DNA of 64,000 nucleotides, taken from NCBI RefSeq assembly GCF_030013595.1, contig NZ_CP122768.1. One strand, 5' to 3'. Below, in pieces: positions 8,062 to 51,564 of the stretch. Made by a program: the position numbers and the translations under genes. Within the stretch, counting starts at the first letter, position 1; every line of letters starts with the position of its first letter. Under the pieces are notes generated by a model that ran no database searches, was not told where the DNA came from, and saw only the letters and a program-made list of their open reading frames with translations. Source of the DNA: Escherichia coli (lineage in GTDB: Bacteria; Pseudomonadota; Gammaproteobacteria; Enterobacterales; Enterobacteriaceae).

Positions 8062-8100
8062 CAGTGCTCTGGTAGCTGTAAAGCCAGGGGCGGTAGCGTG
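8062..8100 (+). promoter_or_regulatory. JUMPstart element with ops (ggcggtagcgtg), the RfaH-dependent antitermination site upstream of the O-antigen operon
   Basis: Sequence cagtgctctggtagctgtaaagccaggggcggtagcgtg read directly, 76 bp upstream of the rmlB start. Confidence 0.85.
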
Positions 8101-10217: not shown

Positions 10218-11096
10218 ATGAAAACGCGTAAAGGTATTATTTTAGCGGGTGGTTCTGGTACACGTCTTTATCCTGTGACTATGGCTGTCAGTAAACAGCT
10301 ATTACCTATTTATGATAAGCCGATGATCTATTACCCGCTCTCTACACTGATGTTGGCGGGTATTCGCGATATTCTGATTATTAGTACGCCACAGGATACT
10401 CCTCGTTTTCAACAACTGCTGGGTGACGGTAGCCAGTGGGGGCTAAATCTTCAGTACAAAGTGCAACCGACTCCAGATGGGCTTGCGCAGGCGTTTATTA
10501 TCGGTGAAGAGTTTATCGGTGGTGATGATTGTGCTTTGGTTCTTGGTGATAATATCTTCTACGGTCATGATCTGCCGAAGTTAATGGATGTCGCTGTTAA
10601 CAAAGAAAGTGGTGCAACGGTATTTGCCTATCACGTTAATGATCCTGAACGCTACGGTGTCGTTGAGTTTGATAAAAACGGTACGGCGATCAGCCTGGAA
10701 GAAAAACCGCTACAACCAAAAAGTAATTATGCGGTAACCGGGCTTTATTTCTATGATAACGACGTTGTCGAAATGGCGAAAAACCTTAAGCCTTCTGCCC
10801 GTGGTGAACTGGAAATTACCGATATTAACCGTATTTATATGGAACAGGGGCGTTTATCCGTTGCCATGATGGGGCGTGGTTATGCATGGCTGGATACGGG
10901 GACACATCAGAGTCTTATTGAAGCAAGCAACTTCATTGCCACCATTGAAGAGCGCCAGGGACTAAAGGTTTCCTGCCCAGAAGAAATTGCTTACCGTAAA
11001 GGGTTTATTGATGCTGAACAGGTGAAAGCATTAGCGGAGCCGCTGAAAAAAAATGCTTATGGACAGTATCTGCTGAAAATGATTAAAGGTTATTAA
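10218..11096 (+). CDS. rfbA: Glucose-1-phosphate thymidylyltransferase
   Basis: 292-aa [22 protein letters not shown]. Confidence 0.92.
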
Positions 11097-28357: not shown

Positions 28358-28404
28358 TTTCTTATTCCTCTTTAAACCTGTCTGAACCGTTATCAACCGC
28401 GCAA

Positions 28405-28439
28405 TAAAAAAGCCCCCGGAAGGTGATCTTCCGGGGGCT
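28405..28439 (-). terminator. his operon attenuator (leader terminator hairpin plus U-run)
   Basis: agcccccggaag-gtgat-cttccgggggct with A6 on the plus strand (U-run on the minus strand), between hisL and hisG. Confidence 0.85.
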
Positions 28440-28502
28440 TTCTCATGCGTTCATGCACCACTGGAAGATCTGAATGTCTTCCAGCACACATCGCCTGAAA
28501 GA

Positions 28503-28553
28503 CTAGTCAGGATGATGGTGATGATGGTGGTGTTTAAATTGAACGCGTGTCAT
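28503..28553 (-). CDS. hisL: his operon leader peptide MTRVQFKHHHHHHHPD
   Basis: Reverse complement of 28503-28553 encodes 16 aa with seven consecutive His codons. Confidence 0.95.
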   Translation of the reverse strand: MTRVQFKHHHHHHHPD

Positions 28554-31220: not shown

Positions 31221-31486
31221 AGAAAAATTATTATGACAAGCCTCTCATTCTCTTGTCATTTCCCCCCCATTTAGGCACAATGCGCCGCTGTCAAAAAATG
31301 ACTAAAAACCGACGTTTCATCAGCGTCGGTTATTTTTTGCTTCAAACCAATCATTCATACCAAGAGGCCGGGCTTCGTACCGGATAGATATTTACTAAAA
31401 ATCGACAGTTGTTGTCGCTGAGGAATCCAAAAAAATGGGGCAATTTTTTGCTTACGCGACGGTTATCACCGTAAAGGAGAATGACC

Positions 31487-44076: not shown

Positions 44077-44532
44077 TCAGTTAACGTTTTTTCCGGAAAC
44101 GGTAATCAGCAGTGGATGGTAGTCCTGGGGATTGAAAACCGATAACGGCAGACTGACACGATGGCCGTTACTTTCTTCAGTTGCTTTAATGATTTCGGTT
44201 GTGGCGACATTTTCCACGCACTCCGTTTCCAGAAATGCGTCTGTGGTTCGCGTGGCATTACTGTCACCAAAAGCTTCCGTTTCCATTTTTCTGGTCACCA
44301 GCGTCTGACCATATTTGTCTTTGAGTTGCAGAGTGATGGTGAGGGGGCCAAATCCTTCATCGTTTCCGCCATTATCCAGCCGGAACTGGTAAGCACAAAT
44401 ATTTCCCGGGAGCCATATCGTATCTGTATTGCGTATACTGATGTAACGTTGATCCTGTGCCCGGAGTGGGGCAGACCACGTTAACCCCAGAATGAAGGCG
44501 GTAATCATGCAGGTTTTGAACAGGTGAATCAT
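44077..44532 (-). CDS. Secreted/lipoprotein-like protein (YfjT/YafY-like)
   Basis: 151-aa ORF with N-terminal signal peptide MIHLFKTCMITAFILGLTWSAPLRA. Confidence 0.6.
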   Translation of the reverse strand: MIHLFKTCMITAFILGLTWSAPLRAQDQRYISIRNTDTIWLPGNICAYQFRLDNGGNDEGFGPLTITLQLKDKYGQTLVTRKMETEAFGDSNATRTTDAFLETECVENVATTEIIKATEESNGHRVSLPLSVFNPQDYHPLLITVSGKNVN

Positions 44533-44607: not shown

Positions 44608-47130
44608 TTATGCCGGTAACTCCGGGGGTAATGCTTCTTCCAGTCGGTTAACCATATTGCCGAGATGGGATGCATCATATTCCATGACGGGGCGTTGCCT
44701 GATGATACTGACCACCAGTGGTTTGATTAACATATTGGTCGCGGCCCGTTGTTGTATACCGGCGGCGAAAATGATCTCCAGAGCATTCTGATCGATAACA
44801 CGGGCCAGATTCTCGTTCAGATTTTCAATCTCATGTCCGGTCAGCAGGAAACTGCCGGCAAGCCATGTCACCTGCTCCTGAATCATTGCCAGAATTTTGA
44901 CGCGATCTTCTTCAACCAGCGCTCCGGCAATTTTTCCTGATACAGCGGAGGCAATCATTCCCCCCAGAACACCGCCAACCACACGCCCTGTCAGTGCACC
45001 AAATGGTCCCAGTGGACTGAACAGTATCCCGCCCGCCACTGACCCGACAGCTCCACCTGCCACACCGGAAGATGCCACGGCAAGATTCCTGATGAACTGC
45101 GCACCGGAGATCCGTCCCCGCAACATTTTGATCATGTCAGGGCCGGTTGTGACAGCTATCAGTGCCAGAGATGTCACCAGCGTACCCTTCATTACTTTGT
45201 TCAGGGCACTGATATTTCCTGCACCGGTCCCCTTCTGAAGAGCCAGTCGGACAGTCGGGCTGGCAGTCGAAAAATCAATGTGCTTCAGCATACCCTGAAC
45301 AACACTGAGCCGGTGGAGTTGCTGGGTTGTGACGTAGACAGCCAGTGTGCGGGTGAAGGTTTTTCCTGCCTGGACAGCAGCTGTCTGCAGGGCAGCATCG
45401 CGATCGCCGGTGCTGAGCCAGAAGACCGATGCCGTCAGGGCAAAACTGATCCCTCCGGCCGCCAGACTGACAACCGAACCCTCGGCAATATCATAAGTGA
45501 CCGATTCGATGGTCCCGAACCGGGTGATATTACGGGCCTGAGTATAAGTCAGATGTCCCCGACGAATCAGCCGGGACGCTTCTGCGGGATCGGTTACACC
45601 GGGTACTTTACCTTCGCGGATCTTATTCCTCATGGTTTCAACAGCGCCGGCATACTGATCACGGGGGACTTCCAGTTGCATGGGGCCATTATTTCCCATG
45701 TAACGATACTGTCCGTTTTGTCCGTCGAATGCCGCACCGACGCTACGGGCTGCAGTTGAACAATATTTCGTCTGGATTTCTGTTCCGCTGACCAGTCTGT
45801 CTGCTCCATTTCTGGCATTATTATCACCGAGGATCCGTGCGTTTTTCAGACGGACTCTGTCGACAATATGGTTTCCCCGTTCAGCGGCAAACCCATGTCC
45901 CTGCCCTCCGGAAGCAAACATTTTCTCATTTGTACTCCAGGTTTCCGGCAGTTTCATGAGAATCAGACCATTCGCCGTTGCATCGGAAATAAAGCTGTTG
46001 TAAGGGCGTTCATAAATTTCCTGACACAGTGTTTCTGTTTCGCGACAAAGAGAGGAGCAGTACCATTCCGGATCCGGCTTATGATTTTCCGGGGCATGAT
46101 GTACTTCTGTCAGCCCGCAGGAGGCACAGATACGAAGCTCATCCACGTGATGGAATGATACAAAACGGCGACCTTCTGAAAAGGGATACCAGTCACCGCC
46201 GTCCAGGCAACGATCGAGAAAATCGTCATTCGCTTCCGGTGATAAATTCAGGCGGTTCCGGAAGAGCGTTTTCAGTTCATCAGGTGTGAATGACAGGTTC
46301 TCTTTCAACTGTTCGTTAAACCCTGCCATGTTTCTTTCATACCAGGCATTGTTCAGTAACCAGTTTCCGTCTGCCAGTTCAAATTCCCTCAGCTCTCCCC
46401 GGGAAATCCGTTGAGAAATGAGCGTCAGCCAGATGCGCTCCGTCAGTGAGTCAGGAAGGCTGTAATCGTTTTGCAAACTGGTCAGCCACGATTTACTGTT
46501 GAGCACCGGTTGTTCTTCCAGTGTCTGGCTGATGGCACAGGTCAGTTTTTTCAGCGCCTGGATCTGGCTGGCCGCCCATAGCAGCGTCACTAATGCAGCC
46601 AGCCAGTACAACAACCCGCCCCACCACATCAGTGACGGTGAAATATCGTACTGTAACGCGATCAATGGTGCGCATGCAGAACACGCCATAAGGAAAAAGG
46701 CAGTATAAAAACAGCAGTAATACCCGTTAATTTCCTTGCTGATATCTTCTGGTGTGATCCCGTTCTGCTGAATGTTTTTGATCTGCAGGGGAACAGCCAG
46801 CAGACCACCGGCGAGAGCGGTGGTCAGAATAAATTTCACAGAGTCAAAGGTGTGAGCCTCCAGCGCGATATGTTTACCATCAAGTCCCCACATGAAGCTG
46901 ATGATCATTCCGGCAATCGTCAGAAATACGCCTGCCAGCCAGCGAATATGGAACAACCGGGTTATGCGTTCGGTGATATAGCCAGCCAGTAAGGCCGGGC
47001 CGAACAGACACAGCAATATGAGCCCTGCCAGCGCAGAAGCCGTGCTGATTAATGCTCTGAACAAAAGGCGAAGAATGGCAAATCCTGCGATCAGCAGGAT
47101 CAGCGCGCCGACTATCTGTAACATAGTCAC
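44608..47130 (-). CDS. yeeR: Large inner membrane protein, YeeR-like (840 aa)
   Basis: Long ORF with N-terminal and C-terminal TM clusters and a central Cys-rich segment; between flu and the lipoprotein gene. Confidence 0.5.
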   Translation of the reverse strand: MTMLQIVGALILLIAGFAILRLLFRALISTASALAGLILLCLFGPALLAGYITERITRLFHIRWLAGVFLTIAGMIISFMWGLDGKHIALEAHTFDSVKFILTTALAGGLLAVPLQIKNIQQNGITPEDISKEINGYYCCFYTAFFLMACSACAPLIALQYDISPSLMWWGGLLYWLAALVTLLWAASQIQALKKLTCAISQTLEEQPVLNSKSWLTSLQNDYSLPDSLTERIWLTLISQRISRGELREFELADGNWLLNNAWYERNMAGFNEQLKENLSFTPDELKTLFRNRLNLSPEANDDFLDRCLDGGDWYPFSEGRRFVSFHHVDELRICASCGLTEVHHAPENHKPDPEWYCSSLCRETETLCQEIYERPYNSFISDATANGLILMKLPETWSTNEKMFASGGQGHGFAAERGNHIVDRVRLKNARILGDNNARNGADRLVSGTEIQTKYCSTAARSVGAAFDGQNGQYRYMGNNGPMQLEVPRDQYAGAVETMRNKIREGKVPGVTDPAEASRLIRRGHLTYTQARNITRFGTIESVTYDIAEGSVVSLAAGGISFALTASVFWLSTGDRDAALQTAAVQAGKTFTRTLAVYVTTQQLHRLSVVQGMLKHIDFSTASPTVRLALQKGTGAGNISALNKVMKGTLVTSLALIAVTTGPDMIKMLRGRISGAQFIRNLAVASSGVAGGAVGSVAGGILFSPLGPFGALTGRVVGGVLGGMIASAVSGKIAGALVEEDRVKILAMIQEQVTWLAGSFLLTGHEIENLNENLARVIDQNALEIIFAAGIQQRAATNMLIKPLVVSIIRQRPVMEYDASHLGNMVNRLEEALPPELPA

Positions 47131-47244: not shown

Positions 47245-50200
47245 TCAGAAGGTCACATTCAGTGTGGCCTGACCGTTATACCCTTCAGCGCTGCTGCCGC
47301 TGACGCTGTGGGCATAACCGGCCTGAACGCCCAGGGTGATATTTTCCCGGACACGGGCTTCCAGTCCGGCCTGCAGGTCCAGTGATGTGCCATTCTGTGA
47401 GGGAGAGAACGTCATCCCGCTGCCTGCAGTGGAAGTCCCCACACGCATATCTCCCCGGGAGCTGAAGGTGCGGATAACAGAAGGCTGTACCCACCAGTTC
47501 ACCGGTAATTCACTCACACTGTGTTTTGCACTGTCACGCAGGGGGGCACGGGATGAGGTGCCTTCGCCAAAGGTCATATCGTTGTGGCTGCCCAGACGGA
47601 AACCGGCACGCACATGTTGTGCACTGCCATGCCCGAACTTCACATAACCGGCGTTGTCCTTACCGTCATCCAGGGAAAGTCCCTGCCAGGTATACTGCAG
47701 TTGTGGCTCCAGCATCAGGTTGTCAGTGATACTGAAGGGCAGACCGGTTTCCAGTGAGCCCAGCCAGCCCCAGCCCCGGGCGCGGAAGTCGTTATTGTCC
47801 GATGACGCTTTCATGCTGTGGCGGGTTCCCTGTGCCACAATGTCAGCCCACAGGCCGGAGGACGTGTGTACCAGATTCAGGTATCCGCCCAGGCTGCCGG
47901 CATCATCCCGGACCGTGCCGGCACGGGAGCCGTCATCATCCTTAACATCAACGGAAGAATGGCCAGCAGCACCATATACCCCCGCGGTCACAGACATACC
48001 GGCAACCTCTGTTCTCATCAGGTCACCCTCCAGACGGACGAATCCATAGCTGCCGCTGCTTTCCGGCGTGGCCCCACGGGCAATACCGCCATTGTTATCG
48101 TGACCGAGATGACCGCCCTGAATGCTGAGACGGACGCTGTTGTTTTCACCATTTACACCGGTCTGATGGCTGCGGGAGCCTGCCACAATCCGGTCATAGT
48201 CCATTGCCTGTGTCAGCATGGAGGCATACAGGGGGACTTCTGCACGATAAGCATTTTCACTGCGCAGATACCAGCTCTCATCACTGTCCCGGTTGAGGGA
48301 GTAGTTAAAGGCACCGGCCTGCAGCCTGTTCCCCTGGACAAAGGCCCCTTCCTCCGTGGTGGCACCGTTAATGGCTTCAACCACCTGAATACCCTTACCG
48401 CTGGTCGCCAGCCCCGACGCACTGTTGCCGGCGTTCACCAGGTTCAGGATGGTTTTTCCGGTTGCCCTGCCACCGTCAATGACCAGTCTGTCAGCATTGT
48501 TCTGTGCCATATCCGGGCGTACACGCAGGCTGATGGTGCCATTCTGCCCGTTCAGGTTTTTCACTTTCAGGGTTGCCGGTACGAACTTCCCTGTGCGGGT
48601 GGAGGTGAAATGAATCTGTCCGGCATGGCTGAGGTCATCCACCACCGACTGCACCGTGGCGTTATCGGGGATATTCCAGGTGGCACCGGAGGCGAGAGTG
48701 ACATTCGTGGGGTCAATGGCACCGTTCAGCACAGTGCTGCCGGTCAGCTTCAGGGCTGTACCGCGCTGAGCAATGACATCCGTGGTGACGGTACTGTCGT
48801 TCAGCGTCAGCGTGCCTTCATTCAGGTTGACGGCTTTCTGGGTGAGTGTGGTGTTGCTGACAGTGAGTGTGCCACTTCCTGATTTTTCCACGCTGCCGTT
48901 ACCGGTGAGAGAGCCTCCCTGCAGGAGCGCATCGCCTTCACGGATGGTCAGGGTATCGTTGTTCACCGTCTTCCCGGAAAGGGTAAGTATGGCGCCGTTA
49001 TTCAGCGTGGTGGTGCCCGCCAGTGTGCCGCCCCTGGCGGTGAACAGTCCGCCATTTACCGTGGTATCCGTGGCCGTATCACCGGCGTTCAGCGTGAATG
49101 AACTGCCTTTTTCCAGCATCAGGGCATCCGCCTGACCGCCTCCGATACTGAATGCCTTTCCGTCGCTCCGGGTACCACTGACAGCGGCACCGGAATCGGC
49201 CAGCAGTACACCGCCATTTCCCATGGATACGGTGGTGGCGGTGCCACCGTTGCGGACATCCAGTGTTCCGCCATCATCCACGCGGGTATTAGTGGCTGTG
49301 TGTCCGGTCAGCACATCCAGGCGTCCGCCATTTTCCAGTACGACATTATCAGCTTTACCCTCCACAACAGAGAATGCTCCCAGGCGGTTTATGCCGGTAA
49401 CGGTTGCAGCCGTACTGGTAACCAGTGCGCCGCCCTGCTTCAGGGTGACATTCGTGGCTGTACCACCGGCGTCCACCTGCAGTCTGCCCTTCTGATTAAC
49501 GGTGGTATTCCCGGCCACACCCCCGTTTTTGACAATCTGCCAGCCGTCACTGTTCACAACAGTGTCAGACGCTGTACCGCCGTTGTGCACATACTGGTAT
49601 CCCCCATTCAGCGTGGTATCCAGTGCGTGACCATGTACAGTCTGGTCGCCGCCGGCATAAACCACAGTGGTATTTGCCGTTCCTTCAGCTCTCACAATCT
49701 GGCGACCGTTTTTATTGATGGTTGTGCGTACGGCATCCCCGCGAACAAACTGCCCGGTATCACCGTTTTCTGCATCCGGTCCCCCTTCCGCCCCGGTATT
49801 AACAACGGTATCCGTTGCCACTGTACCGGGCTTGACGACCTGCCAGCCCTTATCATTAATGACGGTTCCTGTGGCTATCGCCCCCTCATGCATCCACTGT
49901 TCGCCACCATTCAGCGTGGTGTTCACTGCCCGTCCCTGAAGGCTCTGTCCGCCTCCGGCACTGATAACCGTGTCTGAGACACTTCCACCGGGGTTCACTC
50001 TCTGAAGACCACCACTGGTGACAGTCGTTTTGTTGGCTGTTCCGCCATCCTGTACCCATTGCCCGCCGGTATTGGCCTCGTTATCCGGCCCATACTCCAG
50101 CCCGGTACTGATGGTCATTCCGTTGGTCGTACCGAAGACAATCTGGTTGTCATGATTTGCCAGTGTTCCGCCGTTCACGGTTTCTCCCGGGTGCACAACG

Positions 50201-50364
50201 ATGTCAGCAGCCAGCACCGGGAGTGACGTGACTGCGGCAAGAGACAGTGCAACCGCCACACCGCCACGTTTACCCCGTGCGCGGGCCAGTTCGGAGGCAA
50301 CCACGAAAGCGCCCGTAATGTGATTCCATACCAGCCTGTAGCAGGTATTCAGATGTCGTTTCAT
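47245..50364 (-). CDS. flu: Antigen 43 self-associating autotransporter adhesin
   Basis: 1039 aa from MKRHLNTCYRLVWNH; repetitive beta-helix passenger and C-terminal beta-barrel ending in F. Confidence 0.95.
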   Translation of the reverse strand: MKRHLNTCYRLVWNHITGAFVVASELARARGKRGGVAVALSLAAVTSLPVLAADIVVHPGETVNGGTLANHDNQIVFGTTNGMTISTGLEYGPDNEANTGGQWVQDGGTANKTTVTSGGLQRVNPGGSVSDTVISAGGGQSLQGRAVNTTLNGGEQWMHEGAIATGTVINDKGWQVVKPGTVATDTVVNTGAEGGPDAENGDTGQFVRGDAVRTTINKNGRQIVRAEGTANTTVVYAGGDQTVHGHALDTTLNGGYQYVHNGGTASDTVVNSDGWQIVKNGGVAGNTTVNQKGRLQVDAGGTATNVTLKQGGALVTSTAATVTGINRLGAFSVVEGKADNVVLENGGRLDVLTGHTATNTRVDDGGTLDVRNGGTATTVSMGNGGVLLADSGAAVSGTRSDGKAFSIGGGQADALMLEKGSSFTLNAGDTATDTTVNGGLFTARGGTLAGTTTLNNGAILTLSGKTVNNDTLTIREGDALLQGGSLTGNGSVEKSGSGTLTVSNTTLTQKAVNLNEGTLTLNDSTVTTDVIAQRGTALKLTGSTVLNGAIDPTNVTLASGATWNIPDNATVQSVVDDLSHAGQIHFTSTRTGKFVPATLKVKNLNGQNGTISLRVRPDMAQNNADRLVIDGGRATGKTILNLVNAGNSASGLATSGKGIQVVEAINGATTEEGAFVQGNRLQAGAFNYSLNRDSDESWYLRSENAYRAEVPLYASMLTQAMDYDRIVAGSRSHQTGVNGENNSVRLSIQGGHLGHDNNGGIARGATPESSGSYGFVRLEGDLMRTEVAGMSVTAGVYGAAGHSSVDVKDDDGSRAGTVRDDAGSLGGYLNLVHTSSGLWADIVAQGTRHSMKASSDNNDFRARGWGWLGSLETGLPFSITDNLMLEPQLQYTWQGLSLDDGKDNAGYVKFGHGSAQHVRAGFRLGSHNDMTFGEGTSSRAPLRDSAKHSVSELPVNWWVQPSVIRTFSSRGDMRVGTSTAGSGMTFSPSQNGTSLDLQAGLEARVRENITLGVQAGYAHSVSGSSAEGYNGQATLNVTF

Positions 50365-50544
50365 CAGCTTTTCCTTAGATTGAGGGTGAATAAAAAAGCC
50401 GGTACCCACAAACGTGGATACCGGCAGGTAAAGGGTTACAGTGCCGGAGGTCCGGCTGTGGGAGTTTCTGAATTGTGGTTCTGTTGTTCCCTGAATGTCT
50501 TTCTGTACGTATCTGTGCATGTTACTGACAAAGGTTATTATTAG

Positions 50545-50592
50545 CTTATCGATCGATATAAACGATCGATAAAATAGATATCGATCGTTTTA
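50545..50592 (-). promoter_or_regulatory. agn43 (flu) phase-variation switch: three GATC Dam sites within the OxyR-binding region
   Basis: GATC at 50551-50554, 50564-50567 and 50583-50586, about 190-220 bp upstream of the flu ATG. Confidence 0.8.
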
Positions 50593-50691
50593 TTCTATTA
50601 TTGAGCTATTGCACGGACAAGAGAGACAGTAACGAAAACAGTGCTTTTGTGAGCAGACTCAGAGTCAGGGAGGGCATCAGTCACGACAGGT

Positions 50692-51564
50692 TCAGAAGAA
50701 AATCCAGTTCCATACCGCACGGGCAACAGAGACCACCGTGTCACGAACAGCGCGCAGGGCCGTACGGACAACAGAGGCAACACAGACGCTCTCCGCTGTG
50801 TCAAATATCCGGTCCACCGCACCGGTAAACTGTTCACGGGCCTGAGAGCGGACAGATTCCGTGCGCAGCTCGTCCTGCAGTCGGGTCATCAGGGGACTGG
50901 CGGCATGGTCGGGAAGCGCTGTCATGAGCGCACTGACCAGCGTATCCAGTTCCCAGCCGGTGCGGGCCGATACGGCCACAACCGGATGTACGGGCCGGAA
51001 CAGACGGAATACCGCCTCCGTTTTTTCGCGAATATTCTGTGCCTGTGCAGGAGAAGGCTGAATACCGGCCATATCCCATTCATGGCAGGGCTCCGTTTTG
51101 TCGGCCTGCGTCACCACAAACAGTACCCGCTGATGTCCCCGGTGCAGGATGTGTCGCCAGAAATACTCATCCACAGACAGGGCACGGTCATCGGCTTTAA
51201 TCAGCCACAGTACCAGGTCAAGTTCAGGCAGAATGTCACGGTACAGGGCCTCATACTCTGCATCCCTGTCCCGGCTCTCGCCCACCCCGGGCAGGTCAGT
51301 GATAACCATGCTGTGACCGTGGCCACTCAGACGGAAGCGCCGTACTTCCCGGGTGCCGGCGTGAACATCACTGACCGGGGTGACCTCCCCCTGAAACAGT
51401 GCATTACAGAGTGAGGATTTACCGGCCCCGCTTTTACCCATAATGCCAATCACGGGTTCGTGACGGGTGAGTTTGCGCAGATGTTCCAGGATGTGACGGG
51501 AAAGCGAGTAAGGCAGGGAGGAGAGCGGTTTTTCAATTGCCTCAATGGCATCAGACGGATTCAT
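50692..51564 (-). CDS. yeeP: GTPase YeeP/YkfA family (apparently intact)
   Basis: P-loop GKSGAGKSS; start taken at MNPSDAIEAIEKPL. Confidence 0.75.
   Translation of the reverse strand: MNPSDAIEAIEKPLSSLPYSLSRHILEHLRKLTRHEPVIGIMGKSGAGKSSLCNALFQGEVTPVSDVHAGTREVRRFRLSGHGHSMVITDLPGVGESRDRDAEYEALYRDILPELDLVLWLIKADDRALSVDEYFWRHILHRGHQRVLFVVTQADKTEPCHEWDMAGIQPSPAQAQNIREKTEAVFRLFRPVHPVVAVSARTGWELDTLVSALMTALPDHAASPLMTRLQDELRTESVRSQAREQFTGAVDRIFDTAESVCVASVVRTALRAVRDTVVSVARAVWNWIFF

Follow-up and report, generated by a model that had tools for sequence, protein, structure and literature searches.

The three-GATC OxyR/Dam switch and the IsrC leader RNA upstream of flu (agn43) in an Escherichia coli genome

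Does the leader of the flu (agn43) gene in this Escherichia coli genome carry a complete OxyR/Dam phase switch, and what is the relationship of that switch to the small RNA IsrC? An earlier note on this DNA had placed an intact three-GATC switch in the leader, and had expected IsrC to lie there too, in the interval between yeeP and flu. We have analyzed this locus within the window, by which we mean the whole 64-kb stretch of DNA under study. The finding of the IsrC leader and of the switch of Ag43, an aggregation adhesin of E. coli, is correct; it is also already known, and ordinary. What the annotation gains is a set of firm coordinates for the promoter, the Dam sites, the OxyR site, IsrC, the leader terminator and a three-gene operon.

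The flu locus, its promoter and the GATC sites

The flu coding sequence (47245..50364, minus strand, with its ATG at 50364-50362) is intact, comprising 1039 codons and a stop. The 1039-aa product matches the Ag43 equivalog profile NF033177 with 1876.7 bits (cutoff 1200), and is identical to K-12 Flu at 1038 of 1039 residues. On the upstream side lies a yeeP-like GTPase gene (50692-51564, minus strand), which is also intact and encodes 290 aa with an MMR_HSR1 domain. The 327-nt gap between this gene and the flu ATG contains three GATC sequences, each a Dam target, that were read directly from the sequence. Following the direction of transcription they are GATC-I (50583..50586), GATC-II (50564..50567), which comes 19 nt after GATC-I, and GATC-III (50551..50554), 13 nt after GATC-II. 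There is no further GATC between 47185 and 51689. The earlier note was correct in reporting an intact three-GATC OxyR/Dam switch, which adjoins an intact Ag43 gene. The interval of 50365-50600 that had been given for it was also right, since it runs from the base before the flu ATG to just past the −10 hexamer; the feature is on the minus strand.

The clustering of GATC sequences was considered as statistical evidence and dropped, because it is uninformative. The window contains 219 GATC sequences, a number at which chance would give about 1.2 triplets within 36 bp, and 1350 of 2000 random placements contained such a triplet. We regard the cluster in the flu leader as real by virtue of its identity with K-12 and its conservation, and not by count. 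There is a second triplet in the window at 24458-24478 (21 bp), and GATC triplets alone are therefore not diagnostic.

A promoter scan gave a σ70 promoter for agn43 on the minus strand, with a −35 hexamer TTGTCC (50615..50620) and a −10 hexamer TAGAAT (50592..50597) separated by a spacer of 17 nt. Together these match the consensus at 9 of 12 positions, and this is the sole promoter-like site in 50200-50900. The TTG of the −35 hexamer is found at the same spacing in all ten of ten E. coli alleles. Across 86 unique alleles the conservation of the −10 block TAATAGAATAAAAC is 95-100%, and the block is present in Citrobacter too.

The G of GATC-I (50586) is located 5 nt past the −10 hexamer, and is the probable transcription start common to IsrC and the agn43-yeeR-irmA mRNA. 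The 5' end of K-12 isrC (2071317) maps to this same nucleotide. Wallecha et al. 2002 reportedly placed the agn43 start at the G of the first of the GATC sequences. In EC958 (ST131) the agn43-yeeR-irmA mRNA starts 228 bp upstream of the start codon as determined by 5' RACE (Moriel et al. 2016, PMC4807369), and in the allele found in ST131 genomes the G of GATC-I is at −228. The leader of the window is of the K-12 type, with GATC-I at −222 as opposed to the −228 of the ST131 type. In this strain agn43 transcription would be expected to start at the G of GATC-I. For the start site, and for the leader termination discussed below, we have drawn on secondary citations and on the K-12 annotation.

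A putative OxyR-binding region (50552..50588, minus strand) spans all three GATC sequences. Candidate sites were scored against the 37-mer OxyR consensus ATAGnTnnnAnCTAT-N7-ATAGnTnnnAnCTAT. The match at 50588-50552 agrees at 14 of 20 specified positions; it is the best locally, and is among the four best sites of the window. The region is made up of nested perfect inverted repeats, with arms at 50546-55/50563-72 and at 50550-59/50578-87. GATC-I and GATC-II are contained in a 12-bp repeat AAACGATCGATA / TATCGATCGTTT, which is perfect given the G at 50582. Binding of OxyR at the agn43 switch is taken from the literature (PMC2909390 among the sources). The top-scoring 37-mer match of the window is at 10295-10331 (15/20), and contains a GATC; this is most probably a chance occurrence. 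A terminator-like match on the plus strand at 50560-50590 was rejected. What was picked up there is the palindrome formed by GATC-I and GATC-II, with the −10 region in complement behind it, and is no terminator.

In pairwise alignment of the minus strand, the yeeP-flu intergenic region is identical to that of K-12 MG1655 in 364 of 365 shared columns. The locus, the promoter, the three GATC sequences and their 19/13 spacing are all those of the K-12 agn43 switch. The Dam/OxyR switch of K-12 agn43 (flu) is reportedly the subject of Henderson & Owen 1999, Haagmans & van der Woude 2000, Waldron 2002 and Wallecha 2002. The sole difference from K-12 is at 50582, the base following GATC-I, which is G in the window and A in K-12. 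Among the natural alleles G occupies this position 107 times and A 19 times, and so the window has the commoner form and K-12 the rarer. The A of K-12 breaks the 12-bp inverted repeat at one position. The OxyR consensus specifies no base at position 50582. The 86 bp of promoter and switch recur without change in 376 complete genomes. On either side of this region the two loci differ. The yeeP gene is a truncated pseudogene in K-12 but intact in the window, and a deletion has taken irmA from K-12, whereas yeeR and irmA of the window are intact.

IsrC, the leader terminator and the downstream genes

In MG1655 isrC (b4435) is annotated at 2071317-2071511, with flu beginning at 2071539. Alignment of K-12 isrC with the leader was the check that the earlier note had proposed for its placement of IsrC, and it succeeds, with 194 of 195 nucleotides identical; with respect to yeeP and flu, IsrC is placed and oriented as in K-12. 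Transfer of the K-12 annotation gives a 195-nt IsrC RNA at 50392..50586 on the minus strand. The leader also matches Rfam family RF00124 over the full length of the model (50588..50385, model positions 1-206 of 206), with a score of 253.5 bits (gathering score 46) and E = 6.4e-49. The RF00124 match (204 nt) and the RefSeq annotation (195 nt) do not have the same ends, the difference being 2 nt on the 5' side and 7 nt on the 3' side. RF00124 carries the name 'IS102 RNA', which we take to be the one first given to the IsrC candidate, and to have no connection with the insertion sequence IS102. RF00124 is the only Rfam match within 12 kb at E ≤ 1. Other matches in the window above the gathering score are found at 1132-1491, 8062-8100, 28404-28527 and 31266-31340, corresponding to four tandem copies of naRNA4, a JUMPstart element, the histidine operon leader and STnc240 respectively.

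Between the transcription start and the flu ATG there is an intrinsic terminator or attenuator (50392..50425, minus strand). It has a 12-bp stem with 8 G-C pairs and a 4-nt loop (50425-50398), followed by a run of six T nucleotides (50397-50392), with a calculated free energy of −22.3 kcal/mol. Between the T6 run and the ATG there are a further 27 nt. The Shine-Dalgarno sequence AAGGA (50372..50376, minus strand) is placed 7 nt before the ATG, and here TAAGGAAA is 100% conserved in the 86 alleles. Since isrC ends at the G of GATC-I on one side and at the last T of the terminator on the other, IsrC would be the agn43 leader transcript itself. Judged from these boundaries it is co-extensive with the leader from start site to terminator, and would not be a separate gene inside it.

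The 222-nt leader has a predicted folding energy of −60.5 kcal/mol, compared with −39.8 ± 4.2 kcal/mol for shuffled sequences (z = −5). In constrained folds of agn43-type alleles, a CCGGCA...UGCCGG pairing competes with the 5' arm of the terminator; this region is not conserved in the cah-type alleles. The assignment of this pairing as an antiterminator is speculative. An in-frame open reading frame beginning at an ATG at 50520, and running for 52 codons into the flu ATG, was considered as an N-terminal extension of Ag43 or as a leader peptide overriding the terminator. It was rejected because neither start nor frame is conserved. ST131-type alleles have a stop codon 75 nt upstream, the starts differ and indels shift the frame. 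There is no Shine-Dalgarno sequence before the ATG at 50520. As this ATG is in frame with flu, gene callers could report a product of 1091 aa.

Two further minus-strand genes follow flu. Second in the operon is a yeeR-like open reading frame (44608..47130) of up to 840 aa, the true start of which is uncertain, and for which a search of Pfam and NCBIfam profiles gave no family match. The third is irmA (44077..44532, 151 aa), which matches PF18673 IrmA with 127.8 bits. No terminator-like site was found on the minus strand between flu and irmA. The first is a hairpin located right after irmA (44052-44024), with a 12-bp stem and a T-run, and this is the probable end of the operon. The arrangement is like that of the operon described by Moriel et al. 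2016, in that the three genes, their order and their strand agree, the PF18673 domain is present and no terminator comes before the end of irmA. Co-transcription of agn43-yeeR-irmA, and dependence of irmA on OxyR, were reported for EC958 and CFT073 (PMC4807369). By analogy the switch probably governs agn43-yeeR-irmA, and not flu alone. As the complete three-gene operon is present, IrmA is probably phase-variable too. The window is collinear with strain 118UI, and does not have the ISEc10 (IS21-family) insertion that splits yeeR in 118UI (about 45442-45451).

Conservation among natural alleles and in Citrobacter

We compared the leader with natural alleles from two sources. The first was an alignment of ten alleles from complete E. 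coli genomes that range from 100% to 84% identity, together with O157 cah and an 'Ag43/Cah family' gene. The second was a scan of metagenomes using the terminator as the search pattern, which gave 130 instances and 86 distinct promoter-to-ATG sequences. Of the latter, 25 are agn43-type, with leaders of 222-228 nt, and 61 are cah-type, with leaders of about 252 nt. The use of the terminator as the search pattern accounts for part of its conservation among the metagenome sequences, but not for that of the switch.

The 19/13-nt spacing of the GATC sequences is invariant in 10/10 divergent E. coli alleles, and in about 121 of the 128 usable instances found through the terminator. In the 86 alleles positions −13 to +39, counted from the start, show 90-100% conservation apart from +9 to +15 and +27/28. 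From about +40 to +155 the agn43-type and cah-type sequences cannot be aligned with one another. Conservation resumes at +157 and extends over the terminator, ATTCACCCTC after it, and the ribosome-binding site. Across the 86 alleles, it is only the −10/three-GATC block, the terminator and the ribosome-binding site that are conserved. That the Ag43/Cah leaders keep just the switch and the terminator/ribosome-binding module is a mildly new comparative point.

The elements of the Rfam structure differ in how they are maintained. The Rfam terminator helix, comprising the 12-bp stem plus one loop-closing pair, has 13/13 pairs in 25/25 agn43-type alleles, including changes of U.G to U-A. In the cah-type alleles 12 of the 13 pairs are kept in 61/61, and the loop-closing pair in 74%. 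Helix H1, the GATC-II/III hairpin, is kept, and its conservation is confounded with that of the palindromic OxyR site in the DNA. H2 has a single compensatory pair, TA to CG, within the agn43-type alleles. H3 never varies within the agn43-type, and is unalignable or absent in the cah-type. Support from covariation for the whole of the Rfam IsrC structure was examined and dropped, since nothing is established beyond the terminator. The 86 alleles give no support for a conserved structured or seed-bearing core of IsrC.

One GATC has been lost in 7 of the roughly 128 usable instances (~5%), with AATC at site I or II, and GATT or CTAT at site III. Metagenome loci of this kind are L016, L026, L066, L068, L096 and L117, where the sites are 126-191 nt upstream of the terminator match. 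Such alleles may have altered switching, or a bias towards OFF. As natural losses exist, it is informative that the sites in the window are intact. An unusual case is a contig assigned to a Collinsella MAG (L012, minus strand, 1131-1168 and on downstream as far as about 960), on which there is a cah-type switch of E. coli. The leader is interrupted within the 5' arm of the terminator, where GTACCTGCCGGTA is followed directly by CCGATG.... This probably reflects contamination of the bin together with an insertion or rearrangement.

A scan using one genome per species found the switch cassette in two species of Citrobacter, namely C. braakii (at 5108-5145 of L011, minus strand) and C. amalonaticus (at 941-978 of L013), in both cases with the 19/13 spacing. 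Over a stretch of about 52 nt that runs from TAATAGAAT to GATC-III the sequence is almost that of E. coli, and the −35 hexamer of Citrobacter (ATGACA) is better than that of E. coli. The cassette comes after a yeeP-like gene for a GTPase, and belongs to an island of the type that carries flu. It is placed about 115 nt upstream of a gene encoding a 154-aa protein with a signal peptide (L011, 5015-4551). No family was found for this protein in Pfam or NCBIfam. The possibility that it is a divergent IrmA was discarded, as no similarity was seen by BLASTP, Pfam or NCBIfam. The Citrobacter leader is short, and the IsrC terminator is absent from it. Homologues of the 154-aa protein occur in other islands without the cassette. 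From these comparisons the −10/three-GATC cassette of ~55 bp looks portable, and the gene of the 154-aa protein is possibly a new phase-variable gene. The presence of the switch cassette before a different gene in Citrobacter is mildly new; otherwise the analysis brings nothing new to biology.

Probable two-layer control of the operon, and alternative readings

The reading that we prefer, with a probability of about 0.9, is that the operon is controlled at two levels, comprising an epigenetic ON/OFF switch set by Dam and OxyR, and attenuation in the leader. RNA polymerase would use the σ70 promoter and begin transcription at the G of GATC-I (50586). The OxyR site (about 50588-50552) would begin at this start and hold all three GATC sequences. 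If OxyR binds the unmethylated site after replication, the promoter would be repressed and the GATC sequences shielded from Dam, and the OFF state would then be inherited. If Dam methylates the GATC sequences first, OxyR could not bind, and the promoter would be ON. In ON cells the transcript would meet the terminator at 50425-50392. Molecules that terminate there would be the 195-nt IsrC, and those that read through would be the mRNA for Ag43, YeeR and IrmA. The competition between OxyR and Dam, the co-transcription, and the termination and antitermination in the leader are derived from passages of the published literature (PMC2909390 and PMC4807369 among the sources). On the evidence of its sequence this strain would be expected to switch phase. 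IsrC is likely to be mainly a by-product or an element acting in cis.

A bolder form of the proposal, which we consider unlikely, is that IsrC is a trans-acting RNA specific to the ON phase, and/or that the four CCGG segments (50455-50398) form a regulated attenuator of three hairpins that tunes read-through; separately, that the portable cassette has made a new phase-variable gene in Citrobacter. If it were true, a trans-acting IsrC made in the ON phase would make physiology depend on the state in which agn43 is epigenetically set.

The idea that IsrC is a true trans-acting sRNA with targets of its own, for which the position in the flu leader would only supply a promoter, so that ON cells gain a riboregulator, is in our view distinctly improbable. 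It draws on the annotation of IsrC as an sRNA gene in K-12 and as a 'Gene; sRNA' family in Rfam, on the expected release of IsrC as a discrete terminated RNA, and on the compensatory TA to CG pair of H2 in the agn43-type alleles. But IsrC has no promoter separate from the agn43 start site, which is common to both. Moreover, the central ~115 nt of IsrC, where a seed would lie, are replaced wholesale in the cah-type alleles while the switch and the terminator are kept, and this favors an attenuator acting in cis over a trans-acting sRNA. Knock-down of IsrC by dCas13a changed the yield of lycopene (PMC10783499), but dCas13a directed to the leader would also strike the flu mRNA. A 2026 study found both isrC and flu strongly down in an evolved clone and proposed that IsrC represses cyoD, a target predicted by IntaRNA (PMC13168525). 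The link to cyoD is a prediction only, and no validated target of IsrC was found in the literature searched. The joint loss of isrC and flu in that clone is what an ON-to-OFF switch of the clone that was picked would give.

It is also conceivable, though very unlikely, that the elements are all present but the switch is locked or non-functional, through the G at 50582 or through a background without functional Dam or OxyR. The window is one base off the K-12 site that was tested, and this base is inside the region of the OxyR footprint; natural alleles that have lost a GATC also exist, and so the module is not untouchable. Yet the three GATC sequences of the window are intact, and the G at 50582 is the majority base and perfects the GATC-I/GATC-II inverted repeat. 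The sharing of the 86-bp promoter and switch with 376 complete genomes also argues against a locked switch. There is no dam or oxyR gene in the flu region that was searched; as a matter of general knowledge, both are core E. coli genes. Finally, that the three GATC sequences are a chance cluster in an AT-rich spacer, with no regulatory meaning, can be dismissed, because although about one triplet is expected per window and a second one is indeed present, the region is nearly identical to the experimentally characterized K-12 region, and spacing and flanks are invariant where the neighboring sequence is fully diverged, and in another genus.

If the two-layer control holds, the levels of Ag43, IrmA and IsrC in a culture will depend on the phase of the colony that was picked. 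It follows from this phase dependence that differences in isrC or flu expression cannot be read as regulation without a check of phase.

The agn43 switch has a likeness to those of pap (Lrp/PapI) and of Salmonella gtr and opvAB (OxyR). In each a regulator competes with Dam for GATC sequences within the binding site of the regulator, leading to a heritable ON or OFF state. The geometry is different, however. In agn43 there is a single OxyR site located at or after the start site, where OxyR is a repressor only, whereas gtr, opvAB and pap have two alternative sites upstream of the promoter (PMC2909390; PMC4856963).
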